Below are positions 13,392 to 63,194 of a stretch of 64,000 nucleotides of DNA, piece after piece (position 1 is the stretch's first letter; every line of letters starts with the position of its first letter). The stretch covers positions 33,760 to 97,759 of the forward strand of contig JAPOUM010000004.1 of assembly GCA_026708645.1 (NCBI GenBank), written 5' to 3'. The position numbers were made by a program, and so were the translations under genes. Source of the stretch: Acidimicrobiaceae bacterium. GTDB taxonomy: Bacteria > Actinomycetota > Acidimicrobiia > Acidimicrobiales > Aldehydirespiratoraceae. The notes beneath the pieces are model-generated. The model did not search any database and was not told the DNA's origin. It worked only from the letters and a program-made list of their open reading frames with translations.

Positions 13392-14225
13392 ATGGGTAAC
13401 TCAGCGATCTTCGTCGACGCCGAATACCTCTACGCAGAGGGGGGACGGCTCTGCTGCAAGAGCTTCGAGCGCGACGACGTGCTCCTCTACGGCTTGGGCG
13501 CGAACGAGTTCCTCTCGGGCCTGGCCACGCGCGTCTGCGGCCACAAGCCGCTTCGCACCTACTGGTACGACAATGCCAACCAAGGCGAGGCCACTCCCGC
13601 GCAAATGCAGCTGGCGGTGCTGCCCAACATGAAGCTGCGACTTCAAACCGGGTCCGCTGATTCGTGCTCCTCCATCAGCTCGGCCATCAGACGGGACATG
13701 CTGACGCTCGCGGAGAATCAGGCCATATGCGACGCCTTCTTGCTGTCGGGCGACGAGAACCTGGTCAACTGCGTCGCCGAAGCACAAGACTTGGGGCTGC
13801 GAGTCACACTGGTGAAGATCAAGGACCACGAAGAGCCTTCGTGCGTCACAGGCTCGCTGAGAACCGAAGTCGACGAGGTGCTCAGCCTGGACCATGAAGA
13901 CCTGTCTCGCTTCATCCGGCGCCGACTCAGCCCCGACGACACCGCCTCGGATGCTTACGACCCCCTTGAGTCGGTGTCGATGGCCGCCGCCCAGTTCGCC
14001 GACAACTGGCTCAACACGGCGCCCGACGACGAGTTCGACGCCCTCTACGACCAGCGTCCGCGCATACCGGAGTCGCTCGACAGCGACCTGCTCTACGCGG
14101 TGGAGCACGTTCTCGGCGGAAGCCTTCGAGGCCAAGACCGCTTGCGACGGGCTGTGCGCCAGGCTTTCTGGGAACGGATCGACCAAGAGGTCGGCGACTG
14201 GCCTCCCATCAAGCAAGGGCTTTAG
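13392..14225 (+). CDS. NYN (LabA-like) domain protein
   Basis: N-terminus AIFVDAEYLY ... LRTYWYD ... FLLSGDENL is typical of NYN/LabA PIN-like nucleases. The gene stands alone immediately downstream of tRNA-Lys. Confidence 0.6.
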   Translation: MGNSAIFVDAEYLYAEGGRLCCKSFERDDVLLYGLGANEFLSGLATRVCGHKPLRTYWYDNANQGEATPAQMQLAVLPNMKLRLQTGSADSCSSISSAIRRDMLTLAENQAICDAFLLSGDENLVNCVAEAQDLGLRVTLVKIKDHEEPSCVTGSLRTEVDEVLSLDHEDLSRFIRRRLSPDDTASDAYDPLESVSMAAAQFADNWLNTAPDDEFDALYDQRPRIPESLDSDLLYAVEHVLGGSLRGQDRLRRAVRQAFWERIDQEVGDWPPIKQGL

Positions 14226-52628: not shown

Positions 52629-54056
52629 TCAGGGTGGTGGCGACAGCGCTTCCGTGAGCGCTCGAATTTCGGTTAGAGCGGATTGCAGGTCGTCGGCTGC
52701 CTCGGCGGCTAGGACGGCCGGGGGCGGGAGATTGTCGATGTCTTCGAGGCTGTCGTCGCGCAGCCAGAACAGGTCGAGGCTGACCTTGTCCCGGGCCGTC
52801 AACTCGTCGTAGCTGTAGCTCTTGAAACGCTCCGACGGTCGGCGCAAATGGCGTTCGCCGGTTTTGTAGCAGGCTACGAAGTCGTCGAGGTCGGCTCGGG
52901 TGAGCGGGTTCTGTTTGAGGGTGAAGTTCTTGTTGGTGCGCATGTCGTAGACCCACAACTCTCGTGTCCAGGCCTGATCGGCGCCCTCTCGGCGACGGAA
53001 GAACAACACGTTGGCCTTCACGCCCTGGGCGTAGAAGATGCCTGTCGGCAGGCGCAGCAGCGTGTGGACTTCGCAGTCGTGCAGCAGTCGGCGACGGATC
53101 GTCTCACCCGCCCCCGCTTCGAACAGCACGTTGTCGGGCACCACCACGGCGGCTGATCCGCCCACCTTGAGCACGCCGACGACATGCTGCACGAAGTTGA
53201 GTTGCTTGTTGCGGGTGACGGCCCAGAAGTCTTCGCGCTCGTAGCTGTCCGACGAGGACCGCCCGAAAGGCGGATTGGTCAGCACCATGTCGAAACGCCG
53301 TCCGGGATCGGCTCGCAGGGCGTCGTCGACATGCACCGGCGAGTCCGACTCGGGGCTCTCGATGCCGTGCAGCAGCAGGTTCATGGCGCACAGCCGCGCC
53401 GGCAGGTCCGCTATCTCCCAGCCGGTGAAAGCCCCCGAGCGCAGCAGTGCCACCTGGTCGGGCTCCAGAGGTGTGAAACGCTCGATGATCGACCGGTAGG
53501 CGCCCAAGAAGAACCCGCCGGTGCCGCAGGCCGGGTCGCAGATGCGGTCGCCGGGCTCGGGGGCCATCACGTCGACGATCGCTGAGATCAGCGCTCTCGG
53601 CGTGAAGTACTGGCCGGCGCCTCGGGCGCCTTCTTGAGCGGTCTTCTCGATCAGGCCCTCGTAGGCGTCGCCTTTGAGGTCGGCTTCGTAGCTGAGCCAT
53701 TCGTGCTTGTCGATGAAGTCCTTGATGAGCTGCTCCAGCTTGGCGGGGGTCTGGATCCGGTTGCGGGCCTTGTGGAACACCACCCCCAACATGTCGTCGC
53801 CGGCGCCCAGCGCCGCCAAGGTCTCGCCGTAGTGGTCTTCCAGTTCGGCGCCCGACCGGGCGAGCAGCGACTGCCAGTCATGCTCGATCGGCACCACCCG
53901 CTCACCGCCCAGCAGCTCATGCTGCTCGTAGGCCATCTTCAAGAAAAGCAGGTAGGTGAGCTGCTCCACATAGTCGCCGTAGGACAGCCCGTCGTCGCGC
54001 AGCACGTCGCAGAAATCCCAAAGCCGCTGCACCAAAGCCTTCGAATCGTTGCTCAC
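52629..54056 (-). CDS. hsdM: type I restriction-modification methyltransferase subunit
   Basis: HsdM_N-like LWDFCDVLRDDGLSYGDYVEQLTYLLFLKM, SAM motif DPACGTGGFF, catalytic LTNPPFG. GTG 54056 overlaps the upstream TGA as GTGA. Confidence 0.9.
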   Translation of the reverse strand: MSNDSKALVQRLWDFCDVLRDDGLSYGDYVEQLTYLLFLKMAYEQHELLGGERVVPIEHDWQSLLARSGAELEDHYGETLAALGAGDDMLGVVFHKARNRIQTPAKLEQLIKDFIDKHEWLSYEADLKGDAYEGLIEKTAQEGARGAGQYFTPRALISAIVDVMAPEPGDRICDPACGTGGFFLGAYRSIIERFTPLEPDQVALLRSGAFTGWEIADLPARLCAMNLLLHGIESPESDSPVHVDDALRADPGRRFDMVLTNPPFGRSSSDSYEREDFWAVTRNKQLNFVQHVVGVLKVGGSAAVVVPDNVLFEAGAGETIRRRLLHDCEVHTLLRLPTGIFYAQGVKANVLFFRRREGADQAWTRELWVYDMRTNKNFTLKQNPLTRADLDDFVACYKTGERHLRRPSERFKSYSYDELTARDKVSLDLFWLRDDSLEDIDNLPPPAVLAAEAADDLQSALTEIRALTEALSPPP

Positions 54057-54400
54057 GGCCGATGCACTCCGGGGTATGGGTTCGGGTTGGCGACAGACCA
54101 TTCGTGCAGATGGAGCGCCAAGGCGTGGGGCAGTGCTGAGCCGCGCGGGTGCCGGCGCTTGCTGACGAAGACGACGACCGCGCGCGGTGAGCCCGCGGCG
54201 AGCCGATCGTTGGCGATTTTGGCGAAATCCGCAAAATTCTCAGTCACGATGATCCGTTGCTGCTCGACGGCGATCTCGTAGATGTCGGAGTCAGTGCTGC
54301 CCCCGAGCCCCGCTTCGATAACGCTGAGCGCCTCATGTCCTAACGCAGCCAGTTCTGCCGCCGCAATTCGTGGCAGCATCTCGTCGATCAGCCATCTCAA
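54053..54400 (-). CDS. DUF5615-type PIN-like putative toxin
   Basis: MRWLIDEMLP...LGHEA...D.DI...A..QQRIIVTENFADF matches the DUF5615 pattern as I recall it. 4-nt overlaps on both sides. Confidence 0.65.
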   Translation of the reverse strand: MRWLIDEMLPRIAAAELAALGHEALSVIEAGLGGSTDSDIYEIAVEQQRIIVTENFADFAKIANDRLAAGSPRAVVVFVSKRRHPRGSALPHALALHLHEWSVANPNPYPGVHRP

Positions 54401-54819
54401 GACGAAAGCAATCGTTCACGCTGGCGAGCTTGGCGGCGGACCTCCTCCGCGGCTCGCTCATCCGCTTCGATCAACGCGTCAATCTCCTGAGGGAACGAAG
54501 CGTAGAAGTCTGCCGCCAGCATCACCGACGCTGCCGCTAGGCCGGTCTCGGCGGCAAGGTTCTCGACACGCTCCATTCCCCGGCCCGACGCAGCGGCCAG
54601 ATCACGCACTACCTCCCATACGTCGGGACCGCCCGCGAGCGCAGCGCGCCGACCAACGGGGCCGTCACGATAAACGACACCTGCGAAACGGCGCGTCTTG
54701 AGGCCCTCGTCGAGCATGGAGGAGACCAGCTGTGTGATTGAGGCGCCAACGGCGCGACTCTCGGCCTCGACGCGTTCCAACAGTTCCTCGGGAAGACGGA
54801 ATGATGTGGGCCGCGGCAT
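54397..54819 (-). CDS. putative antitoxin, RHH (CopG-like) N-terminus plus DUF433-like region
   Basis: FRLPEELLERVEAESRAVGASITQLV is RHH-like. The downstream GVVYRDGPVGRRAALAGGPDVWEVV is DUF433-like. DUF433/DUF5615 pairs are a known predicted TA arrangement. Confidence 0.5.
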   Translation of the reverse strand: MPRPTSFRLPEELLERVEAESRAVGASITQLVSSMLDEGLKTRRFAGVVYRDGPVGRRAALAGGPDVWEVVRDLAAASGRGMERVENLAAETGLAAASVMLAADFYASFPQEIDALIEADERAAEEVRRQARQRERLLSS

Positions 54820-54876
54820 AAAAACTCCGTAGCGTGAGCAAGCTACACCATACTACAACACGGTTGTCATAAATTG

Positions 54877-55460
54877 CGAATTGCGCAGTGGTCGAGGCCA
54901 GTGGGCCTGTTGCTTCTTGAACTTCGGCCAGTCTTTCAGCCAGAAAGTCCAGTCGCGCTGGAGTCGCAGTCAGCGAACCTGTTGCTTCCAGCCCGGTCGT
55001 CAACACGCAGCACGGTCGCGTGCATCGTCGTGAGGTGGCCGAAGTCAGCGAACCCTGTCGATCACTGTCAGCGGCGAGACGATGACGGCGGGTGTGCCCC
55101 GTCGCGAGGTGGCCGAAGTCAGCGAGCCACGGCGGGGTGCGGTCGGGGTGTTGGCTGGGCAAGGACGGCGTACATCGTCGTGAGGTGGCCGAAGTCAGCG
55201 AGCCATCTTCTTCGTCATTGAGTGGCGCGCCGGGTAGGGGCGTACATCGTCGTGAGGTGGCCGAAGTCAACGAGCCTGTTGTCTCCTGTCGAAGCACTCG
55301 CGGGCTTTCGCCAGCGCTGCGGTTGCGCTGCAGTCGCGCTGTGGTCGAGGCCAGTGGGCCTGTTGTCTTGCCTCTAGTGGAGTCAATAAACCTTCGTCCA
55401 GCAGAAACCTTCGTCCAGCAAGTTGCGCTGTGGTCGAGGCCAGTGGGCCTGTTGTCTCTC
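54877..55460. repeat. 8-unit repeat-spacer array (35-38 bp related repeats, 72-88 bp period, unrelated spacers)
   Basis: Central units at 55018, 55091, 55168 and 55240 share gtcgYgaggtggccgaagtcaRcgaRcc. Outer units at 54881, 55336 and 55424 share gcgcWgtggtcgaggccagtgggcctgttg. The unit at 54951 is intermediate. Sequences between units do not resemble each other. Confidence 0.85.
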
Positions 55461-55547: not shown

Positions 55548-56954
55548 TCACCACAGCGTGGCCGGGGCCGGGTCTCTGGCTCTGGTGCTGACGCTTGTAC
55601 GGCTTGTTTTGCTTTCGGGTCGGGCCGGTGATCGCCCGCGACGCAGTGGCGGTTCCGGTGCTGGTGGCCGCTCGGCGGCGCACGCCGGCCCGCAACGGCC
55701 GTGATCCGCTGACCCGACACGACCCGCTCCCCGAGGTGGATGGTCGTCGGCGTGGGCCGGCCCGTAGCGGGGCTGCAAAGCGGGATTGTCGGGCGGGTGC
55801 AGCGTGTGAGTGCCGTCGCTGTGGGTCTCAATGAACCAGTCGTGATGATGGATTTTGTGGTGACAGTTCCAGCACACCATCACCATGTTCTTGACGCTGG
55901 TCTCCCCGCCCTTGGAATACGGGACGATGTGATGGGCTTGGCACATGCTCGGCGGCGCCCCGCAGTGGAAGCAACCGCCGTAATCGGTCAGCAGGGCTTG
56001 CCATTGCGTGTCGGTGACCGTGCGCCGTGACCGGCTGCGCCAGATCGCGTCACCCGAACGGTCGTACACCAGACCGGTCCAACGCGCGTTGCACGACAAC
56101 TCCTCCAGCACCTCCGGCGGCAGCCGTGAACCGTCTGAGAGTTCAGCGACCAACTCGCCGGTGGCGTCGTCAACGTGCGCTACCAGCGTGATGTCAGCCA
56201 CCCAACCAGCGCCACCGTCGGACCGAACGCCGTCAGCAGCGACCGCAGGGGCGGTGGCGCGGTCGAGGGCGTCGGCCATGCATTGTGCGAACTGGCGTCG
56301 ATCCGCTTTGGGGAGTTTCCGGTCGTTGCCGAGCAACTGTTCTGCGATGTGGCGTATCCGGTTGTGGATGCGTGTGCCGGTGATCTTGTCGAACTCGCCA
56401 TGCAAAGCGACCATGCCGTCCTCGCCGTCATAGAACCTCAAATACCGCTTAGCACGCTGACGGGCATGCTCAGAGGCGCCGTCGTCGTCTTGCTGGGCGG
56501 TGATCCAGCGTTGCGCGGCGCGCCTGAACTGCTCGGGACGCATCGACGAGGCTTGCCCCAGCAACGAATCATCGCCTGCTACCGCATCAGAGCCGGTTTT
56601 GGTGATCGCCTCGGCGAGCCGTCGGGCGTTCGCTTGGGGCACTTCGCCGGCTTGCACAGCGTCTCGCAGCTTCGGGACTTTGTGCAACGCTTGCGCGGTC
56701 TTGACCTGACTGCGGGCTTCGCTGTGAGACAACCCGGCAGACACGGCCAGCACTTCCGCGCCGCCGTCGCCGTGACGCTCCCGTGCGGCGATCAGCTCCG
56801 CGGCGGCGCTCTGGAACGCCGTGCCTGCGGCCATGAACACACGAGTCTGCTCCAAGGCGGCGCGCAGCTCATCGGACGCCACACCGCCGTCGCGCAATGT
56901 CGCGAGCATCCTGTTGGCCGCGGCGACCGCTTGTCGAGCATCTGCTAACACCAT
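55548..56954 (-). CDS. DUF222 + HNH endonuclease (REP13E12-type protein)
   Basis: HNH core CQAHHIVPYSKGGETSVKNMVMVCWNCHHKIHHHDW with the long alpha-helical DUF222-like N-terminal part. The true C-terminus is uncertain. Confidence 0.8.
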   Translation of the reverse strand: MVLADARQAVAAANRMLATLRDGGVASDELRAALEQTRVFMAAGTAFQSAAAELIAARERHGDGGAEVLAVSAGLSHSEARSQVKTAQALHKVPKLRDAVQAGEVPQANARRLAEAITKTGSDAVAGDDSLLGQASSMRPEQFRRAAQRWITAQQDDDGASEHARQRAKRYLRFYDGEDGMVALHGEFDKITGTRIHNRIRHIAEQLLGNDRKLPKADRRQFAQCMADALDRATAPAVAADGVRSDGGAGWVADITLVAHVDDATGELVAELSDGSRLPPEVLEELSCNARWTGLVYDRSGDAIWRSRSRRTVTDTQWQALLTDYGGCFHCGAPPSMCQAHHIVPYSKGGETSVKNMVMVCWNCHHKIHHHDWFIETHSDGTHTLHPPDNPALQPRYGPAHADDHPPRGAGRVGSADHGRCGPACAAERPPAPEPPLRRGRSPARPESKTSRTSVSTRARDPAPATLW

Positions 56955-57261
56955 GAACAGTAGTATAGGTCATGGGTGCGACAAAGCAACCTCTTTCAAG
57001 TAAAAATCTTTAATATCGGGCATCTTTCTTGCCAGCCATGCGAGCATTGGCCAGCGCCGGTTCCGGGGTGCCCCACCCTCAACCGCTGACAGCCGCCAGC
57101 TCCACCTCGACCACAAACACGCAGGCCAGAAAACGCTGTCTCGCACGAGCGATGCGACGTCGGCGGGGTGGCTGACCACGATGAGCCGTCACACCGGCCT
57201 GAAAACGCAGTTCCGTGCGACCGGTCATTGACGGGACTGTCGCTAGCTGTGATAGCTTGTC

Positions 57262-57325
57262 GCCAATCCCCCCAGTCGCTTCTGGTGGCTGGGCGAAGGC
57301 CCGCTTCGGCGGGCCTTCGTGCTTT
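57262..57325 (+). ncRNA. candidate small RNA, copy 1 (promoter-like element, 9-bp hairpin, intrinsic terminator)
   Basis: TTGACG 57228-57233. Extended -10-like TGaTAGCTT 57250-57258. Hairpin CCCAGTCGC/GTGGCTGGG 57271-57293. Terminator GAAGGCCCGC-ttcg-GCGGGCCTTC 57295-57318, then GTGCTTT. Confidence 0.3.
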
Positions 57326-57477
57326 ACCAGCCCCGGGCTTGAAGAGTCCGCTGCGAACCAAAACTAGTACACCGAGATCGCGCCTTAGCGAGGCTTCTGG
57401 GGTTGTCGTTGCAGCGGGCTAGCCGCGCACAAGCGAGGCGAGCCATCCGCAAGTGCCCGAAGAGACAGTCAAACCCT

Positions 57478-57488
57478 CCCCCCCCCCC
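57478..57488. repeat. homopolymeric C11 tract
   Basis: Direct count. Lies between the two sRNA-candidate copies, 15 bp upstream of the second TTGACG. Confidence 0.95.
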
Positions 57489-57537
57489 GCTCACGGACGG
57501 TCATTGACGGGACTGCCACTAGCTGTGATAGCTTGTC

Positions 57538-57601
57538 GCCAATCCCCCCAGTCGCTTCTGGTGGCTGGGCGAAGGCCCGCTTCGGCGGGCCTTCGTGTTT
57601 T
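57538..57601 (+). ncRNA. candidate small RNA, copy 2, with terminator abutting the NYN stop codon
   Basis: TTGACG 57504-57509. Hairpin 57547-57569. Terminator 57571-57594 followed by GTGTTTT. The NYN stop codon (57600-57602) overlaps the T-run. Confidence 0.3.
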
Positions 57602-58256
57602 ACCAGCCTCTGGGCTTGCGAATTGGCCCCGTCCGGTCATACACGACGTCCGGCAGCTGCGACCCCTCAAGCGCTCGATTCGGAATCTGACGATAGAACA
57701 GGCAGCCAACCTCTTTGAGTCTGCGAGACCGGCGGTTGCGGGGATGCGGGTTGAAGACGCCCACCCGGATGCCCATCTCAGACTGAGCGACCTCAATCGC
57801 CTGGGCCAGATCCGAGTCGTTGCTGAAGACGACAGCCGTCTCGCAACGGTGCTTGCAGGCGTCCAGCAGCAGGTAGGTGGCCAGATTGACATCGGACCCT
57901 TTCTCTTCGGTCCTGAGCACTTCGACGGTTCGTGACTCGCGGGGTTGGGGCTTCGCGAGTGGAAGGCGAACTGCTCGAGTCACGAAGTGCCCGTACTGGA
58001 TCTCCATCAACGGCAGCGCGGCAAGGGCACGCAGGTAGGCGTCCTGGCGATCCGGACGCTGAGGGTCATCCTCGCGAGCGTCCACCCGAGCCGTGAAGTA
58101 ACGGATCTTGGCAATGTTGTCGCCGGGCAGCAGTCGTCGGCAGAGCGCCTCGAGGTCGAGCCACTTGTATGGCGTCTCCTTGACAGCGCCGTAGTAGAAG
58201 TTGAACCCGTCAACGTAGACGACGGTCTGGGGCCGCCTTTTCTCCATGCCAGGCAT
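57600..58256 (-). CDS. NYN domain (PIN-like) nuclease family protein
   Basis: VVYVDGFNFYYG ... IRYFTA ... EEKGSDVNLATYLLLDA ... VVFSNDSDL is the typical NYN/LabA acidic-residue pattern. ATG 58256 lies 1 nt after the hsdS TGA (58260-58258). Confidence 0.75.
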   Translation of the reverse strand: MPGMEKRRPQTVVYVDGFNFYYGAVKETPYKWLDLEALCRRLLPGDNIAKIRYFTARVDAREDDPQRPDRQDAYLRALAALPLMEIQYGHFVTRAVRLPLAKPQPRESRTVEVLRTEEKGSDVNLATYLLLDACKHRCETAVVFSNDSDLAQAIEVAQSEMGIRVGVFNPHPRNRRSRRLKEVGCLFYRQIPNRALEGSQLPDVVYDRTGPIRKPRGW

Positions 58257-58257
58257 G

Positions 58258-58935
58258 TCAGCGGCTTGGATCGGCCGTCTGAGCGGCTGTGATTCGTTCT
58301 AGCAGGGCTGATGCGGGCTCGTCGGTCGGGTCCTGCGCCACGAGCCGCCCTGCGAAGGCCTCAGCCAGCACACTGCGACGCAAAGCCTCGATCCTGGCCT
58401 GAGCAGCCGTGATCGCAGCACTGGCAGCATCCAAACGCGAAAAATACTCCTCAATCGCAGCAACAATCCGCCCCTGCTCCGCAAACGGCGCAACGGGAAT
58501 AATTTGCTCAAGGATCGGCCCTGACTTGGCTCATGTGTGAGAACCGGTACCACCTTCGACAGCTAACTTGATCCAGTCTCGAAATTCGGGTGAGGACAGA
58601 TACTGCGCAATGAAGCCAGCCATTCGCGGATGTCGAGGCCGAAAGACCAGATACTCGGTCGATGCGATTTGTGGGACATCTTCCGCCTGACCGACAACCC
58701 AGACACGATTGATACGCGGATTGATCTTGCAGAGCAGCACATCACCTTGCTCAACGCCGCGCTTGCCGCTCTTGACTAGGACTCCATCAGTCCTCTCTGG
58801 ACACCCCGAGGGAAACGCCGGCACGCTATACAGGTCGTAAATGACTCCAGGTTCTGGTATGAGTTGTCCACGGACCTCAACCCCAAGATCGCCGAGTTCG
58901 GCTGAGGCCCAGCCGGGTGGGAGAACGCTGGTCAT
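58258..58935 (-). pseudogene. hsdS: half-size type I specificity subunit (single TRD + conserved helix) with an in-frame TGA
   Basis: N-terminal MTSVLPPGWASAELGDLG... TRD (134 codons). TGA at 58533-58531. The same frame continues AKSGPILEQIIPVAPFAEQGRIVAAIEEYFSRLDAA...AFAGRLV.QDPTDEPASALLERI, which is the HsdS conserved region. I translated it codon by codon. Confidence 0.75.
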
Positions 58936-59010: not shown

Positions 59011-59388
59011 TCAGGCGACTTGGTCTGAGTTGATGAGGACGCTACCGCCGGGCTGGACATCGATGTTCAGGTTATGGCCTGCTAGCAGCGCCATGCCTAC
59101 CAGCGGGATTGAGCCAGAAGCGTCGACTTGGATGAGCCTCATTTGGCCGTCCCATAGGACGAAGGCGCCATGAGCCAACAGGGTTGTGATGCTGCCGTCG
59201 GCCAGGATGAATATCGAATCGCCGACTTCGGGAAGCTCCATCTCTGCCACGACTGTCGGCGGCAGCGTCAGAAACTCGGTGAAGCCGGTATCGACCACGG
59301 CTTCGATCTCAAGTGTCTGCCCTGCTGGGCCGCTTACGGGCAGTTCGACGACAGCTTCCAAGCGATCGTTGACGACTCCGGCGATCAC
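59011..59388 (-). CDS. retropepsin-like (clan AA) aspartic protease, about 125 aa
   Basis: Catalytic VVDTGFTEFLTLP (D-T-G). LLGMALL-type C-terminal motif (LVGMALLAGHNLNID). GTG 59388 overlaps the upstream TGA as GTGA. Confidence 0.7.
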   Translation of the reverse strand: MIAGVVNDRLEAVVELPVSGPAGQTLEIEAVVDTGFTEFLTLPPTVVAEMELPEVGDSIFILADGSITTLLAHGAFVLWDGQMRLIQVDASGSIPLVGMALLAGHNLNIDVQPGGSVLINSDQVA

Positions 59389-59792
59389 GGTGCCCGTCGC
59401 GAAGGTCGGGCGCCGTGGCCCCAGACGGCGTTGTAACCGACTCGGAGCAGCCACACGTTGACGGCATCCGGATGCGCGGCTCGCAGCGACGCAGCCGCCA
59501 CTCCGAGATCATCGGCCAGAGCCCAGCCTCCGCTGTCCACATCAATGGCCATGTACTCGCCTACATGCGCCGCCGCGAAATGCGGGCGGATGTCGCGCTC
59601 GTAGAGCTCCTTGCCGAGCCGGGCGATCTTCTCGTTTGAGAGCGTCGACTTTTCAAGGGTGCCCGGCGACAGCGCCTCCTCCTTCGGGAGCGTCGGCACC
59701 CGGCGACAGCGCCTCCCCTTCGGGAGCGTCGGCACCCGATGAGCGCGCACAGACGCCGCCTCCAACTCAGATTCGACGCTGCCTTTGATCAT
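59385..59792 (-). CDS. small protein, paralog B of the protease-associated pair
   Basis: 135 aa. Shares HRVPTLPKG..EALSPGT and ARLGKELYERDIRP...EY.AIDV.SGGWAL.DDL.VAAASLRA.HPDAVNVWL.RVG with the upstream paralog. ATGA overlap at 59789-59792. Confidence 0.6.
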   Translation of the reverse strand: MIKGSVESELEAASVRAHRVPTLPKGRRCRRVPTLPKEEALSPGTLEKSTLSNEKIARLGKELYERDIRPHFAAAHVGEYMAIDVDSGGWALADDLGVAAASLRAAHPDAVNVWLLRVGYNAVWGHGARPSRRAP

Positions 59793-60223
59793 GCCGGCAG
59801 TATCCGTCTAGGGCTCAAGATGTGACCCATAACCAGATGGCCGACCCGGATCAGCCACACATTGACAGCATCAGGATGCACCGCACGCAACGACGCAGCA
59901 GCCACCAAGAGATCATCGGACAACGCCCAGCCACCACTGCTCACATCGATGGCGACATATTCATCTTGATGCGCATCCTCCACCTGAGGCCGGATGTCAC
60001 GCTCGTAGATCTCCTTGCCGAGCCGGGCGGTCTCCTCTCGCGGGAGCGTCCGCTTCTTGTGGGTGCCCGGCGACAGCGCCTCCCCCTTCGGGAGCGTCGG
60101 CACCCGATGAACGCGCACAGGCACCGCCTCCCGGGACTCCAAGCCCTGCTGGGAAGCCTGGTCCGCACGAAGCCCGGGGTCTGCCACCGCAGCAGCGCCG
60201 TCTGGATCAACCATAGTGCTCAT
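59789..60223 (-). CDS. small protein, paralog A of the protease-associated pair
   Basis: 144 aa. The C-terminal roughly 70 aa resemble the small partner proteins I recall next to retropepsin-like proteases in cyanobacteria and archaea. Confidence 0.6.
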   Translation of the reverse strand: MSTMVDPDGAAAVADPGLRADQASQQGLESREAVPVRVHRVPTLPKGEALSPGTHKKRTLPREETARLGKEIYERDIRPQVEDAHQDEYVAIDVSSGGWALSDDLLVAAASLRAVHPDAVNVWLIRVGHLVMGHILSPRRILPA

Positions 60224-60304: not shown

Positions 60305-63037
60305 TCAAGCGACCAGTGCGAGAGTCAGTTCTTCGAGGAGCGGATCGAGGCCGCTGCCGAAGAGTTGGCGGGCTTTGCCGAGGCCGCCGTGGGTGCTGAA
60401 CGGCGGATTCTGCAGGTCGGCGGGCGTGAAAGCGAGGCTGCCGGCGATGTGGTCTTTGATGAGGCGCAGGTAGTCGGTCCGCGCGTCGGTGAAACGACGT
60501 CCGAGAGCCTGCTGCTGCGCCAGCCAGGCCTCGAAGCGCTCGTCGACCAGGTCCGGGTAGGCGACCAGTTCGTCGGTGTGGCCGAGGGCATGACGGACGA
60601 GGCTCACCAGATCCGTGCTGACGCGATGCCCTGAACCTCTGACCTTCGAGGCGTCGAGTGTCTGATAGGCGTTCCACAGAGCTTCGGGTGTCCAGCGGTG
60701 CGGCGGGCGGCTGATGGCTCCGGCGAGTTCTTTGATGTCGGCATAGGCGAGCCCGCCGCCGTAGGGCTGGCTGTAGAGCACCTGCAGAGCAGTGATCTCG
60801 TCTTTGTTGTCCTCGATGAAGCGGCGGAACGACTCGGTCTGCTCCCTGGCCCGGTCGGCGGCCTCGCGGGAGAATTCGCCGGACAGCACTCTGTCCTTCG
60901 ACGCGGCGTCGATCACCTGCTCGTAGCTGCGACGGACTTCGATCAGCTTCTGCCGCAGCGCCGCGTTGCCCGCTATCGGCCGCACAGCCTCGGCGATCAT
61001 GCGCTCAGCGGCAGCGGCGACCTGCACAGGAGTCGGATCCTGCGTCGCGGCTTCGGCTGCCGCCTCGGCGTGCTGAAGGTCGGGATTCAAGGCGTCGGTG
61101 ATCCGACGGACCAGATCGCCCAACGCGATACCCGCCACAGTCTCCACCTCGGCGCGGTCCGCGGCGGTGATGCGACTGTTCAGACGGGCCAGACGCGACG
61201 CCACCGACGACACCACATCAGCATCAATCGAACCGAGCCCGACCTGGTTCAACAGACGGTCGAAGTCCACACCGGGGTTGCGCTCCAGCGGCACCGTGTC
61301 GTGCAGACCTGCGTCGGTGACGCCGACCGCGTCCACGATCACGAAACGGTCCTTCGCTGCGGCGTCGGGAGTGACCGCCCGCAGGTCGTCAGCGTCGATC
61401 ACCCGCACGCCCCGGCCCTTCATCTGCTCGAAAAAGTTGCGGCTGCGCACCATCCGCATGAACACCACGCACTCGATGGGCTTCACGTCGGTGCCGGTGG
61501 CGATCATGTCCACGGTCACCGCGATGCGAGTCTCATAGCCGGTGCGGAACTGTTGGAGGAGCTGCTCCGGCTTGTTGCCCGAATCGCCGGAGCGGTAGGT
61601 GATCTTCACGGCGCCTTCGTTGCCGAGGCCGAACTCCTGACGGAAGATCTGCACGATGTCGTCGGCGTGGCTGTCGTCCTTGGCGAAGATCAGCGTTTTG
61701 GGGATGTGCTCGAGCTGACCGTCGGCGTCACGCTCGCGGTCGGTGAATATCTTCGGCAGAGAGGCTCGCAGCGTCTTGGCGACGGTGCGGATCTGGTCGG
61801 GGGCCACCACCTTGCGGTCCAGCTCCGCGGCGTTGTAGTCGATGTCGGCGTCGACCTTCTCGAAGCGGCGGTGGCGGGTCTCGCGGTCGCGGAACTCGGT
61901 CACGAAATCGGCCGGGACCGTGCCGCCGGACTCGGTGATCTCCGTGCGGATGCGGAACACGTCGAAGTCGACGTTCACCCGGTCGGCCACCGCCTGCTCG
62001 TGGCCGTACTCCATCACCATGTTCTGATCGAAGAAGGCGAACGTCTGGATGCCCGGCGTGGCGGTGAGCCCCACCAGGAACGCGTCGAAATACTCCAGCA
62101 CTTGGCGCCACACCCCGTAGATCGAGCGGTGGCACTCGTCGACGACGACTAGGTCGTAGGACTCGATGGGCACCCTCGGGTTGTAGGACACCTCCACAGG
62201 CTGAGTCGGCGCAGTGTCGAAGCCGGTCCGCTCGTCGAGGCTCTCGTCGTAGTCGTCGTAGTCGGCGTCGCCTCGCAGGATCGCATAGAGCCGCTGGATG
62301 GTGCAGACATGCACTTTGGCGGCGGCCTCGTCGGCCATGTCGAGCCGTGAGGCCGTCAACCGACGGACGTTGTACAGCTCGGTGAACTTTCGGGAGTCGT
62401 CGGGGACGGTGAAACCCTCGAACTCTTTCACCGCCTGACGGCCCAGATTGGCCCGGTCCACCAAGAACAGGATCCGGCGAGCCCCGGCGTAGCACAGCAG
62501 CCGGTAGCAGACGTTGGCGGCGGTGAAAGTCTTGCCCGCTCCGGTGGCCATCTGGATCAGCGCCCGGGGTCGGTTCTCCAGCAGGGACCGCTCGAGGCTG
62601 CCGATGGCTTCGGCCTGCGCCGACCACAGTCCGGGCGGGTCAGGACCCAATTCGGGCAGGAGCTGCAAGCCAGCCCGCAAGGTGGCGTAACCGCCGAGTC
62701 GGTGCTGGTCTTCCACCCACTGTGCGAGAGTCTCTGGCCGATGGAAGGCGAACACTCTCCGGCTGGCCGGGATCGGGTCGAGCCCGCAGGTGAAACGAGT
62801 CTCGCTGCCAGTGGACTCGTAGCCGAACGGCAGAGCGCCTTCCGCAGTGAATGCCGGCAACTCGTCGGGGTAGGCGTTGCGGTATTTGCCGGTCTGGGGC
62901 TCCACGCCGGTGAGCGTGCTGCCCGCCTTCTTGGCTTCGATCACCCCCACCGCCTGCCGGTCCACGAACAGCACGTAATCGGCCGGACCGGCGCCAGTGG
63001 GCACCTCACGCACCGCCACTCCCTGCGCGGCGGCCAC
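60305..63037 (-). CDS. hsdR: type I restriction enzyme R subunit (EcoEI-like C-terminus)
   Basis: PD-(D/E)xK DYVLFVDRQAVGVIEAKK, helicase motif I MATGAGKT, motif II VVDECHR, C-terminal FSTHGGLGKARQLFG. The track ORF start (63139) lies inside tRNA-Pro. There is no ATG, so I list the first GTG outside the tRNA (63037). Confidence 0.85.
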   Translation of the reverse strand: MAAAQGVAVREVPTGAGPADYVLFVDRQAVGVIEAKKAGSTLTGVEPQTGKYRNAYPDELPAFTAEGALPFGYESTGSETRFTCGLDPIPASRRVFAFHRPETLAQWVEDQHRLGGYATLRAGLQLLPELGPDPPGLWSAQAEAIGSLERSLLENRPRALIQMATGAGKTFTAANVCYRLLCYAGARRILFLVDRANLGRQAVKEFEGFTVPDDSRKFTELYNVRRLTASRLDMADEAAAKVHVCTIQRLYAILRGDADYDDYDESLDERTGFDTAPTQPVEVSYNPRVPIESYDLVVVDECHRSIYGVWRQVLEYFDAFLVGLTATPGIQTFAFFDQNMVMEYGHEQAVADRVNVDFDVFRIRTEITESGGTVPADFVTEFRDRETRHRRFEKVDADIDYNAAELDRKVVAPDQIRTVAKTLRASLPKIFTDRERDADGQLEHIPKTLIFAKDDSHADDIVQIFRQEFGLGNEGAVKITYRSGDSGNKPEQLLQQFRTGYETRIAVTVDMIATGTDVKPIECVVFMRMVRSRNFFEQMKGRGVRVIDADDLRAVTPDAAAKDRFVIVDAVGVTDAGLHDTVPLERNPGVDFDRLLNQVGLGSIDADVVSSVASRLARLNSRITAADRAEVETVAGIALGDLVRRITDALNPDLQHAEAAAEAATQDPTPVQVAAAAERMIAEAVRPIAGNAALRQKLIEVRRSYEQVIDAASKDRVLSGEFSREAADRAREQTESFRRFIEDNKDEITALQVLYSQPYGGGLAYADIKELAGAISRPPHRWTPEALWNAYQTLDASKVRGSGHRVSTDLVSLVRHALGHTDELVAYPDLVDERFEAWLAQQQALGRRFTDARTDYLRLIKDHIAGSLAFTPADLQNPPFSTHGGLGKARQLFGSGLDPLLEELTLALVA

Positions 63038-63111: not shown

Positions 63112-63185
63112 CGGGACGTGGCGCAGCCTGGTAGCGCACCTGCTTTGGGAGCAGGGGGTCGCCGGTTCAAATCCGGCCGTCCCGA
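63112..63185 (+). tRNA. tRNA-Pro (anticodon TGG)
   Basis: CGGGACGTGGCGCAGCCTGGTAGCGC, anticodon stem-loop CCTGC-TTTGGGA-GCAGG, T-arm GCCGG-TTCAAAT-CCGGC, acceptor CGTCCCG. Confidence 0.9.
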
Positions 63186-63194
63186 CCGAGAATC

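Follow-up and report, generated by a model that had tools for sequence, protein, structure and literature searches.

The HEC-09 family of NYN-domain proteins almost always travels with a conserved, structured small RNA. In the window, that is, the whole 64,000-nt stretch of DNA analysed here, the family is represented by a complete gene abutting a broken hsdS, and the sequence evidence suggests that the small RNA probably controls the encoded nuclease. The reading that we favour, by a modest preference, is an autonomous module of RNase plus RNA that would resemble a type III toxin–antitoxin system and would be lodged in a decaying type I restriction–modification (R-M) island.

The NYN protein and its family

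The NYN gene occupies positions 57600..58256 of the minus strand as a complete ORF of 218 aa, assigned to the HEC-09 family through Pfam PF01936 and PADLOC. Its product scores 43.7 bits against PF01936 (cut-off 24.2; E 5e-11), and residues 11–218 align with positions 4–202 of the 203-position PADLOC profile PDLC04163 HEC-09 (E 4.7e-39). Residues D16, E117, E118, D122, D132, D147 and D149 are invariant across 34 homologues; in an alignment with the HEC-09 representative, four of them, D16, D122, D147 and D149, fall on its DGFN, TDVN and SGDSDL motifs. The AF2 model (pLDDT 89) returns 2qip and the MARF1 NYN domains 5yaa and 6fdl as its top Foldseek matches, while a profile of the NYN alignment run against PDB sequences recovered no NYN chain, the fold search alone being successful. 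The nuclease called in the initial annotation retains its catalytic acidic residues and has a MARF1-like fold, and together fold and conserved residues point to a candidate RNase.

At the upstream junction, the final TGA of hsdS (58260-58258) is followed by a single C and then by the NYN ATG at 58256, the one-nucleotide spacing noted previously. A second in-frame ATG lies at 58247 and was the start chosen by the gene caller in the near-identical locus of a 99%-related genome (L001), so that the gap measures either 1 or 10 nt. Abutment on the same strand makes the previously proposed co-transcription of hsdS and NYN plausible. The second NYN gene that had been placed at 13392-14225 exists as well (PF01936 E 1.8e-8); it has no pairwise similarity to the first and no copy of the RNA motif nearby.

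A word-index search recovers at least 7,894 relatives of the NYN family. Members also occur on 425 PLSDB plasmids, some of them of 3.4 kb; carriers include the 3.4-kb E. coli plasmid pKMi006_5 (NZ_CP091696.1) and M. abscessus GD43A with prophiGD43A-1. A closely related member resides in a Mycobacterium abscessus prophage between integrase and repressor; the plasmid copies of Klebsiella, Xanthomonas and E. coli are mostly distant relatives. Clustering of all ORFs within 4 kb at 80 loci yields no fixed protein partner, the largest neighbour family being integrases (7/80), in agreement with the Pfam and PADLOC neighbour counts. Type I loci account for 2–3 of 80 species-level NYN loci and belong to a single clade. 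Specifically, the immediate upstream neighbour is hsdS in 2 of 74 cases in species-level genomes, with one further hsdM-remnant locus, and the downstream neighbour is hsdM in 1 of 75. The hsd-associated loci all come from the window's own clade, with HsdM proteins 87–89% identical, and it is to this clade that the recurrence of NYN genes 3' of hsdS, raised in the initial annotation, is confined. HEC-09 is a promiscuous, horizontally spread, single-gene family of MARF1-like NYN candidate RNases with no fixed protein-coding neighbour.

The initial annotation took an NYN protein in a PrrC-like role to be undescribed, which is outdated: the family is PADLOC HEC-09 and, in the passages on it by Payne et al. 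(bioRxiv 10.1101/2024.01.29.577857), is reported to be embedded in Hma defence systems, the tested representative giving no defence against the phages assayed. HEC-09 members within Hma systems also occur among the loci collected here (L048, L049). The window protein is 34% identical to the P. amygdali protein tested by those authors and shares with HEC-09 the full-length HMM match, the MARF1-like fold and the conserved aspartates. In both cases a single gene is embedded in a defence locus based on DNA modification, an Hma system in the account of Payne et al. and a type I R-M locus in the window. The passages of that preprint on HEC-09, NYN, type I RM and PrrC make no mention of an associated RNA.

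The NYN-associated small RNA

Directly 3' of the window NYN gene lie conserved small RNA genes that the initial annotation overlooked. Copy 1 (57541..57602, plus strand; model R1 74.6 bits, E 1.3e-19) reads, from 5' to 3', as a AAUCCCCCC tail, hairpin P1, a GC-rich terminator hairpin P2 and a U-tract, with a predicted folding energy of -39.9 kcal/mol (z -6.3). Copy 1 and NYN converge, the U-tract of the RNA overlapping the stop codon of NYN (57600-57602). A promoter-like element read from the sequence, TTGACG, spacer and TAGCTT, precedes the RNA at 57504..57534 on the plus strand. Copy 2 (57265..57326, plus strand; 73.0 bits, repeat family D3, with a fold prediction) lies within a 116-nt direct repeat that also includes a promoter-like element at 57228-57258. 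The two copies are thus 276 nt apart, each with its own promoter-like element; L001 likewise has two copies, and the independent ENA scaffold L006 has one. A consensus scan for promoters and terminators reported no sigma-70 site; it also overlooked the terminator downstream of NYN, since it needs a T-run on the scanned strand. Tandem Repeats Finder did not detect the interspersed 38-nt repeats.

Across the family, the motif comprises about 60 nt folded into two hairpins, with a promoter at a fixed distance and an intrinsic terminator. An invariant single-stranded 5' AUCCCCC is followed by a hairpin of 9 bp with a C(UUCG)G cap. Nucleotide identity of the element 3' of NYN is 80–96% where the proteins are about 50–70% identical. 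RNAalifold on a MAFFT alignment finds compensatory changes in 14 of 20 pairs. Across 87 distinct sequences, pairing holds in 96.0% of cells and every one of the 19 pairs shows compensatory changes. The covariation score is 0.570, compared with 0.203 after shuffling, and slid controls do not exceed 0.123. A second set of 92 sequences, obtained independently by a pattern-first route, gives 97.5% pairing and a score of 0.475 against 0.170, figures to be read with the bias of model-fitted alignments towards structure. Pairing reaches 96–97.5% on the sense strand and 87.5% on the antisense strand, and the G.U cells (152 and 178) fix the strand of the RNA. Moreover, a -35/-10 pair occurs at the fixed distance in 117 of 175 cases compared with 51 of 175 shuffled controls, the interval from the end of the -10 element to the conserved A peaking at 6 nt.

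The RNA is new in being absent from Rfam 15 and from the searchable literature. No Rfam 15 covariance model matches the motif at its gathering score, the best scores belonging to rsmX (29.8 bits against a gathering score of 56), isrB (19.4 against 35) and the L25 leader (18.8 against 34.1), and a search of the accessible literature returned no work connecting bacterial NYN proteins with an antitoxin or an RNA motif. An att- or attC-like DNA recombination site was considered for the element and rejected because the G.U pairs are strand-specific and the promoter stands at a fixed distance. Pairing of the C-run with the NYN ribosome-binding site was not adopted either, the sequences ahead of the start codon being G-rich in some loci and such sequences absent elsewhere.

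Model R1 matches 85 of 86 NYN loci, and in the reverse direction an RNA-first scan of metagenome contigs finds NYN in 83 of 103 evaluable loci, about 20% of the RNA copies in that sample having no NYN nearby. Placement is flexible: among the 86 NYN-first loci, the RNA is convergent and lies downstream in 35, lies upstream on the NYN strand in 47 and is divergent upstream in 3. Two more cases come from the RNA-first set, a co-directional downstream one (L170) and a further divergent one (L102). This flexibility argues for action in trans. In the upstream layout, promoter, RNA and terminator are followed after 0–40 nt by the NYN start, the start codon lying only 1–2 nt past the U-tract in L015 and L018. 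The order characteristic of type III systems, with one promoter, RNA, terminator and nuclease, is thereby present in 47 of 85 NYN loci, the window locus not among them, and in 39 of 79 canonically placed metagenome pairs. In viral contigs, a strict P1 pattern retrieved two partial motifs and no NYN. Model R1 found no RNA beside distant plasmid homologues (31–34% identity; Klebsiella, Xanthomonas, M. intracellulare), although these carry a similarly laid-out leader. In the enterobacterial and Xanthomonas plasmid subfamily, the leader displays a ATTAAGTT loop.

The hsdS half-gene and its type I island

The region is a type I R-M island adjoining tRNA-Pro, with the gene order hsdR, small ORFs, hsdS, NYN, DUF222-HNH, a toxin–antitoxin-type pair and hsdM, the three hsd genes all lying on the minus strand. 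The tRNA-Pro(TGG) gene (63112..63187, plus strand; ARAGORN, Rfam tRNA 67.7 bits) abuts hsdR and is the likely island boundary. The hsdR gene (60305..63013; Pfam ResIII and EcoEI_R_C) is intact, its ORF extending to 63139 with a likely start near 63013, and its product is 98.9% identical to the 902-aa HsdR of L001 without an internal stop. Equally intact is hsdM (52629..54056; Pfam N6_Mtase E 1.3e-63, HsdM_N), whose product is 99.8% identical to that of L001. Between NYN and hsdM, a DUF222-HNH endonuclease gene (55548..56954, minus strand; Pfam DUF222 and HNH) is 100% identical to the L001 copy. It is accompanied by a minus-strand gene pair (54053..54819) overlapping the hsdM start, which encodes a 140-aa protein with a weak RHH/CopG-like N-terminus (Pfam CopG_antitoxin E 0.0049, below its cut-off) and a DUF5615 PIN-like protein (Pfam DUF5615 E 6.4e-18); the L001 copy of the DUF5615 gene shares 4 nt with hsdM. 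Two paralogous small ORFs of repeat family D1 separate hsdR from hsdS (60223-59789 and 59792-59385, minus strand), L001 having one extra paralogue, and a clan-AA aspartic-protease-like ORF lies at 59454-59011 on the same strand (NCBIfam TIGR03698 E 5e-14, below its cut-off). Pfam scans of the small ORFs between hsdR and hsdS returned nothing, even at E 10.

The hsdS pseudogene itself (58258..58935, minus strand) contains one target recognition domain (TRD) and one C-terminal conserved region, equivalent to the latter half of an ancestral hsdS with two TRDs. Translation confirms the half-size, interrupted gene of the initial annotation: the frame 58935-58258 comprises 225 codons with one internal stop, after which it runs on through PFAEQGRIV...AFAGRLVAQDPTDEPASALLERI. 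This frame matches NCBIfam PRK09737 (E 1.4e-13, positions 280–450 of 461) and PADLOC Specificity_I (E 2.7e-42), and Pfam Methylase_S does not match the read-through product even at E 10. The HsdS signature of a TRD followed by a conserved helical region is present, without the uninterrupted two-TRD, two-conserved-region ORF of the relatives, which encode 445–456 aa in two units. L001 has a 456-aa two-unit hsdS with a 3' junction identical to that of the window. Three diagnostic bases in the window start region match the internal linker of L001 and not its 5' start, and the window conserved region is 99% identical to the second conserved region of L001. The conserved motif LVPQDP reads LVAQDP in the window, and a complementing second hsdS is absent from the window. 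On these features hsdS is a decaying pseudogene that has lost its first TRD-plus-conserved-region unit. The loss would have occurred by a crossover between the 5' leader and start and their repeat, which forms the internal linker in the intact relative, and the locus displays in this way a route from a two-TRD hsdS to a half gene via an internal leader-like repeat. HsdM and HsdR are intact but, lacking a functional S subunit, are probably inactive in both methylation and restriction.

The internal stop is a TGA at 58531..58533 (minus strand), as originally annotated, and represents a nonsense mutation from CGA to TGA in a conserved Arg codon. TRD homologues read GSHT-R-AKSG across the site, and in the homologues L087 and L088 the codon is CGA. 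The independent scaffold L006, 99.96% identical to the window with 4 mismatches, 1 gap and one repeat copy fewer, has the same TGA and the same 134-aa truncated product. An error of the window assembly is accordingly unlikely, and an otherwise intact half-size gene disguised by a sequencing or assembly mistake is highly improbable: the TGA is one base away from the CGA of the homologues, but that base is shared with a scaffold differing elsewhere by SNPs and repeat-copy number, and the site lies outside any homopolymer run.

Recombination or deletion that joins the repeated conserved segments of an hsdS gene gives rise to half-size HsdS forms (PMC3874165), and the half-S derivatives EcoDXXI deltaC/deltaN recognise symmetric sites (PMC3874165). 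These and the EcoR124I deletion mutants of the same source consist, like the window hsdS, of one TRD and one conserved region, and both HsdM and HsdR of the window are intact, so a functional product can be envisaged in which low-level read-through of the TGA yields a 225-aa half subunit that dimerizes on a palindromic bipartite site. We give this scheme hardly any credence. In contrast to the EcoDXXI and EcoR124I derivatives, the window gene has an additional nonsense codon, which most likely renders it inactive. A single transition has turned the conserved Arg codon into TGA, a recoding signal is neither known nor visible, and hsdS uses TGA as its own terminator. The alteration of LVPQDP likewise speaks against function, as does the 134-aa truncated product, which lacks the HsdM-binding helical region.

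Proposed control of the nuclease and comparison with known systems

Under the favoured reading, NYN and its RNA would constitute an autonomous two-component module inserted between hsdS and hsdM. The RNA would act on the nuclease in trans and would most likely be an inhibitor or antitoxin produced in surplus; if it were lost, because transcription stops, a phage infects or the element disappears, the RNase would be set free. Latency of NYN would thus depend on its own RNA, with no part for the type I enzyme, and the junction with the hsdS stop codon would contribute only transcription and possibly coupled translation; the small RNAs are the better candidate for restraint of the nuclease. Several observations weigh against this reading: the HEC-09 representative gave no phage defence in the passages of Payne et al. 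on the family, the RNA is a single unit and known type III antitoxins are defined by tandem repeats, the metagenome RNA copies include the fraction without a nearby NYN, and the distant plasmid homologues are unmatched by model R1. In the window, moreover, the RNA is antisense to the NYN 3' end, so that a role in antisense regulation or transcription interference is inseparable there from protein binding. The proposal that NYN and RNA define a new family of type III-like toxin–antitoxin or abortive-infection modules is tentative, and we hold it a little short of an even call.

A purely cis-regulatory element, with no trans-acting or protein-binding role, is unlikely yet retains some weight. 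By position, it could serve upstream as a transcription attenuator or leader and downstream as a bidirectional terminator or cis-antisense RNA. Such a role would fit the 47 of 85 loci in which the motif occupies the 5' leader with its terminator 0–40 nt ahead of the start codon, and the U-tract overlap with the NYN stop codon in the window, through which the two transcripts would be complementary. However, the same sequence and structure are kept in upstream-sense, downstream-convergent, divergent and co-directional downstream placements, the convergent form has its own promoter, and orphan and duplicated RNA copies occur; termination, furthermore, needs neither the invariant single-stranded AUCCCCC nor a UUCG-capped P1. 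A further reading would make the RNA, beyond an inhibitor, a functional subunit of the nuclease, with the invariant single-stranded 5' AUCCCCC as a seed for directing or gating NYN on G-rich RNA targets. This is improbable; if it held, HEC-09 would be a minimal RNA-guided or RNA-gated RNase across many bacterial phyla.

The initial annotation had drawn the analogy to PrrC, in which an HsdR/M/S complex would hold NYN latent and a phage disabling the type I enzyme would unleash it. The position of NYN within an hsd locus in the window and L006, in L001, L007 and L008 and in L002–L005, together with the presence of HEC-09 inside Hma systems (L048, L049, and the relevant passages of Payne et al.), speaks for such a guard, but the analogy is not borne out and we regard it as very improbable. 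The type I association is limited to the 2–3 of 80 species-level loci of one clade, and the spacing is variable, with a gap of about 95 nt in L007 and L008 and NYN placed after hsdM in L002. NYN stays intact beside the hsdS pseudogene of the window and beside a lone hsdM fragment in L011, an ABC-ATPase sensor domain is absent from it, and the family is paired with a conserved RNA of its own whatever the context.

The junction of hsdS and NYN alone is ordinary, being a decaying specificity gene beside an already catalogued candidate gene. The interest lies in the RNA, which offers a concrete explanation of nuclease control in HEC-09, a candidate defence gene of wide distribution for which neither a phenotype nor a partner was known. 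The suggested functional unit for defence or toxicity assays is therefore NYN plus RNA; in the convergent arrangement, a clone of the NYN gene and promoter would miss the RNA 3' of the gene. If the favoured reading is true, the RNA-antitoxin systems would gain both a toxin fold and a non-repetitive RNA architecture that are new to them.

Convergent antitoxin RNAs that overlap the toxin gene at its 3' end are familiar from the type I toxin–antitoxin systems txpA/RatA and bsrG/SR4 of B. subtilis and par of E. faecalis, whose toxins are small membrane peptides. The window RNA resembles these in converging on the toxin gene and sharing the terminator region, but differs in that the structure of the NYN RNA is conserved and that the RNA is also found upstream in sense orientation, a placement that antisense action does not explain.

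PrrC with EcoprrI (PMC3874165) is similar in having an RNase gene inside a type I R-M operon. PrrC combines ABC-ATPase and anticodon-nuclease domains, both lacking in the 218-aa NYN protein, and according to the relevant passages of the preprint (10.1101/2024.01.29.577857) it occurs almost only within type I R-M loci, whereas the NYN family mostly resides elsewhere. Closer in design is AbiF-RCd22 of C. difficile, in which the RNA is reported to act in cis and in trans and to neutralise the toxin by direct binding (PMC12373285). Here too a protein toxin is encoded with an adjacent conserved structured non-coding RNA in the same upstream layout, AbiF belonging to the Abi_2, HEPN-like family and the window protein to NYN. 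The Rfam abiF model does not match the NYN-associated motif.

Type III toxin–antitoxin systems follow the order of a single promoter, RNA, Rho-independent terminator and nuclease gene (PMC5086642). Their toxins belong to the ToxN/AbiQ-like ToxN, CptN and TenpN families, as opposed to the NYN/PIN-like fold of the window toxin candidate, and their antitoxins are tandem direct repeats processed by the toxin, in contrast to the single two-hairpin unit found with NYN, in which no pseudoknot is evident. In addition, in the half of the NYN loci without that order, the window among them, the RNA forms a gene of its own that converges on NYN. With ToxIN, CptIN and TenpIN (PMC5086642), the NYN modules nevertheless share a candidate endoribonuclease paired with a small structured non-coding RNA, the same gene order in about half of the loci, and a distribution over plasmids, prophages and defence islands.

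Decay of hsdS and the type I island

The hsdS frame at 58935-58258 (minus strand) comprises 225 codons, carries a single internal TGA at 58533-58531 in translation and closes with the conserved C-terminal region of HsdS, PFAEQGRIV...AFAGRLVAQDPTDEPASALLERI. NCBIfam PRK09737 matches the frame (E 1.4e-13), with the second half of the model covered, as does PADLOC Specificity_I (E 2.7e-42); a Pfam scan of the frame gave no match. A single C separates its terminal TGA (58260-58258) from the ATG of a 218-aa ORF (NYN, 58256-57600, minus strand) matching PF01936 (E 5e-11). The half-size hsdS with an in-frame stop and the NYN start 1 nt beyond its end, both described in the initial annotation, are thereby confirmed. 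An alternative in-frame NYN ATG lies 9 nt downstream and is the start called in a relative. In the window, NYN abuts the hsdS end and is preceded by neither a recognisable Shine-Dalgarno sequence nor an RNA-like element. The gene probably depends on hsdS transcription, and perhaps also on translation coupled to hsdS, so that the hsdS nonsense codon, 272 nt upstream, may lower NYN translation.

The window hsdS is a decaying pseudogene descended from a two-TRD gene. The same locus in L001, a 2.48-Mb ENA contig of a 99%-related genome (NYN 99% identical), encodes an hsdS of 456 aa composed of two units that both end in the same conserved region, with the 5' leader and start of the gene (…GPAPSPMTSVLPPGW) recurring as the inter-unit linker. 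The window gene retains one unit, whose conserved region is 99% identical to the second and 94% to the first conserved region of L001. Additionally, three diagnostic bases near its start agree with the L001 internal linker (55/55 nt) and not with the L001 true start, while the DNA upstream matches that upstream of L001 hsdS. A one-unit gene with a linker-type start and L001-like upstream DNA would fit deletion of the first TRD and first conserved region by a crossover between the leader/start and the internal repeat. At the DNA level the window TRD resembles neither TRD of L001; its protein homologues (61-76% identity) read GSHT-R-AKSG at the position of the TGA, so the stop replaced an arginine codon, and this codon is CGA in two of them, one C-to-T change thus having produced the stop. 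In the window, LVAQDP stands in place of the LVPQDP motif that is otherwise invariant. The same truncated product is encoded by L006, an independently assembled scaffold (99.96% identical, 4 mismatches and 1 gap, one repeat copy fewer). No internal stop occurs in HsdR, HsdM or the other genes, which share 97-100% identity with their L001 counterparts, and a search for a second hsdS within the window found none. Engineered half-S subunits can function as dimers (PMC3874165); the 134-aa hsdS fragment, without the helical region, should not work. Full-length L001 hsdS (L001 8620-9990) itself looks like an in-frame tandem duplication of the half gene, the halves joined by a copy of its 26-nt 5' leader, start codon and first codons, and this built-in repeat would allow hsdS to switch by recombination between its half-size and full-size forms.

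The wider locus runs from tRNA-Pro (63112-63187, plus strand) through hsdR, two paralogous small ORFs and a clan-AA aspartic-protease-like ORF (59011-60223), hsdS, NYN, DUF222-HNH, a 140-aa ORF with a DUF5615 (PIN-like) ORF (54053-54819) and hsdM, all on the minus strand, to a plus-strand Fic gene beyond hsdM. The tandem small ORFs, 64% identical to each other, number two in the window and three in L001 (L001 7105-8544), and no protein family was found for them; the protease-like ORF matches TIGR03698 below cut-off. The 140-aa and DUF5615 ORFs form a toxin-antitoxin-type pair fused to the hsdM start (4-nt overlap in L001), so hsdM is probably co-transcribed with the pair, an arrangement reminiscent of the hsdS-vapBC-hsdM order of M. 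tuberculosis. The gap separating the HNH gene from the 140-aa ORF holds four 38-nt direct repeats (GGCGTACATCGTCGTGAGGTGGCCGAAGTCAGCGAGCC; 55017-55276), 87-100% identical and interspersed with unique 34-38-nt spacers in a CRISPR-like geometry; related repeats lie on either side, at 54876-54989 and 55329-55459. The L001 version has three repeats, one repeat-spacer unit fewer, and the repeats match none of the Rfam CRISPR-DR families.

The NYN protein and its small RNA

NYN has at least 7,894 relatives at E < 0.001 (word-index search, 8,000 candidates scored), the best among the matches listed being 60-78% identical and belonging to Acidimicrobiia, Chloroflexota and others. Residues D16, N19, E117, E118, D122, D132, N146, D147 and D149 do not vary among 34 homologues, so the catalytic acidic residues, D16, D122, D147 and D149 among them, are present. 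The best PDB fold matches of the AF2 model (pLDDT 89) are 2qip and the MARF1 NYN domains of mouse and human. PADLOC PDLC04163 (HEC-09) matches over the full length (E 4.7e-39). Payne et al. (bioRxiv 10.1101/2024.01.29.577857) defined HEC-09 as an NYN candidate that consists of one gene and lies within Hma defence systems; they reported a MARF1-like structure, three conserved aspartates and a lack of protection against every phage they tested. Their P. amygdali representative shares 34% identity with the window protein, an already known candidate (HEC-09), and the DGFN, (T/S)DVN and S(G/N)DSDL motifs of the two align. Some family homologues (PLSDB hits H34, H40, H51) are annotated '6-hydroxy-3-succinoylpyridine 3-monooxygenase HspA/NicB', probably a propagated misannotation.

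A 116-nt direct repeat starting at the NYN 3' end served as query against all collected loci. Directly past the NYN stop, 55-80 nt show 80-96% nucleotide identity in more than 25 loci, whose NYN proteins are merely ~50-70% identical. Read opposite to the NYN strand, the element begins with an invariant, single-stranded 5' AUCCCCC(C), followed by P1, a 9-bp hairpin with a C(UUCG)G cap, then by a short GGGYGC linker, the GC-rich hairpin P2 and a U-tract. From a 33-sequence MAFFT alignment, RNAalifold predicts the two hairpins with compensatory changes in 14 of 20 pairs, and the covariance model R1 was built from this alignment. R1 detects the motif beside NYN in 82 of 86 NYN loci at E < 1e-5 and in three more with filters off; the sole miss is a contig ending 23 nt after NYN. 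Across 87 distinct sequences, in a model-fitted alignment that favours the structure, 96.0% of cells are paired, 19/19 pairs show compensatory changes, and covariation scores 0.570, whereas shuffles give 0.203 and slid partners no more than 0.123. Despite the model-fitted alignments, the MAFFT-based result and the slid controls argue that the covariation signal is real.

In the window, copy 1 of the RNA (57541-57602, plus strand) overlaps the NYN stop codon (57600-57602) with its U-tract and is preceded by a promoter-like TTGACG/TAGCTT (57504-57534), while copy 2 (57265-57326) lies within the second copy of the 116-nt repeat; both fold as predicted (-39.9 kcal/mol, z about -6). Between them, a run of 11 C at 57478-57490 in a C-rich stretch (ccctccccccccccc), possibly a slippage-prone tract, marks where the L006 assembly collapses the repeat. 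A second NYN gene (13392-14225; 277 aa, PF01936 E 1.8e-8) lies after a tRNA-Arg/His/Lys cluster and is of another subfamily, lacking pairwise similarity to the first, and an R1 search beside it found no RNA.

Placement and mobility of the RNA-NYN pair

Of 85 loci, 47 have the RNA immediately upstream of NYN on the same strand and three have it upstream and divergent. In the other 35, among them an M. abscessus prophage, a Paenarthrobacter plasmid and the window, it lies downstream of NYN and is convergent with it. In the upstream form, a strong sigma-70-type promoter (e.g. TTGACA-17-TATAAT in locus L045) drives the RNA, and the NYN start codon lies 0-40 nt past the RNA's terminator. An independent scan of metagenome contigs with the P1 pattern and no NYN information returned 120 loci; NYN is encoded in 83 of the 103 with enough flank (40 convergent, 39 upstream on the same strand, and 4 in other placements, which include divergent L102 and co-directional downstream L170). 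These RNA-first RNAs covary as well (97.5% paired, score 0.475 vs 0.170). The 20 orphan RNAs lie among Abi_2, AbiEi/AbiEii, PIN, HicAB and XRE genes, identified by eye; they may be leftovers, or the RNA may have partners besides NYN. Examples with promoter and terminator and no NYN are L094, L124/L193, L189, L136, L151 and L118/L166.

The G.U pairs (152 and 178 cells in the two data sets) fix the transcribed strand, pairing being 96-97.5% in sense and 87.5% in antisense. A -35/-10 pair precedes the RNA in 117 of 175 cases, compared with 51 of 175 among shuffled controls, and the distance from the -10 box end to the conserved A peaks at 6 nt, placing the RNA 5' end at about this A and its length at ~60 nt. 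Rfam 15 contains no family for the motif, the best sub-threshold scores being rsmX at 29.8 bits (gathering 56), isrB at 19.4 (35) and the L25 leader at 18.8 (34.1), and a literature search for a link between a bacterial NYN protein and an RNA partner found nothing.

In PLSDB, 425 plasmids carry NYN homologues (Klebsiella 207, Xanthomonas 56, Escherichia 37), including 3.4-kb plasmids with three annotated genes and an R1 match (25 bits) just upstream of NYN. In prophage prophiGD43A-1, the homologue sits between integrase and repressor, with the RNA downstream (66 bits). A distant plasmid branch (31-34% identical) gave no R1 match; by eye it has the same layout with a different RNA, comprising a promoter, a C-rich hairpin with a ATTAAGTT loop and a terminator, the start codon following 15-25 nt on. 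This leader, with a strong intrinsic terminator, lies at L214 2330-2497, L215 2320-2482 and L216 2340-2509, on Klebsiella and Xanthomonas plasmids of clinical and plant-pathogen origin.

Type I enzyme or small RNA as the NYN partner

The initial annotation likened NYN to PrrC, an RNase held latent by a type I enzyme. Among 80 NYN loci, one genome per species, hsd genes adjoin NYN only in L007 and L008 (order hsdR, hsdS, NYN, hsdM), and an hsdM fragment does so in L011; all three are Acidimicrobiia, and HsdM of L007 and L008 is 87-89% identical to that of the window. Methylase_S is an immediate neighbour in 2/74 cases and N6_Mtase in 1/75, the commonest being a phage-type integrase (4 upstream, 2 downstream); PADLOC places HmaA or HmaB near NYN in loci L048 and L049 and finds scattered CBASS, AriA-like, Dpd and mad genes as well. 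The hsdS-NYN junction is not conserved: the gap is ~95 nt in L007 and L008, NYN follows hsdM after 208 nt in the comparison loci L002-L005, and in the related locus L088 hsdR, hsdS and hsdM are contiguous with nothing embedded. The adjacency is therefore real and common to several related genomes, but with 2/74 species-level loci, a single clade and a varying junction it is one lineage-specific insertion and no recurrent partnership, which leaves the PrrC-like model unsupported. At L002 2296-2366, a solitary weaker RNA copy (46 bits, 5' tail diverged) stands right after hsdS, where NYN stands in the window, while NYN follows hsdM; this leftover suggests that NYN relocated or was duplicated within the locus.

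The real unit is NYN with its conserved small RNA, which is undescribed in the sources searched. That the RNA exists and is associated with NYN we hold with high confidence. The RNA is conserved in every orientation to NYN and brings its own promoter where one is required, which favours a trans-acting partner over a purely cis-acting leader or terminator. The most likely mechanism is an RNA-controlled nuclease of the type III toxin-antitoxin or abortive-infection type, in which the small RNA would control NYN, acting in trans as its inhibitor; we infer all functional steps of this scheme, and give the inhibitory, trans-acting role roughly an even chance.

Payne et al. describe PrrC as embedded in type I systems almost without exception; in contrast to this recurrent partnership, the window NYN entered a type I island once, in one lineage. 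The upstream form of the RNA-NYN loci has the same layout as type III toxin-antitoxin operons (PMC5086642) and as AbiF-RCd22, whose RNA binds its toxin, acting in cis and in trans (PMC12373285).
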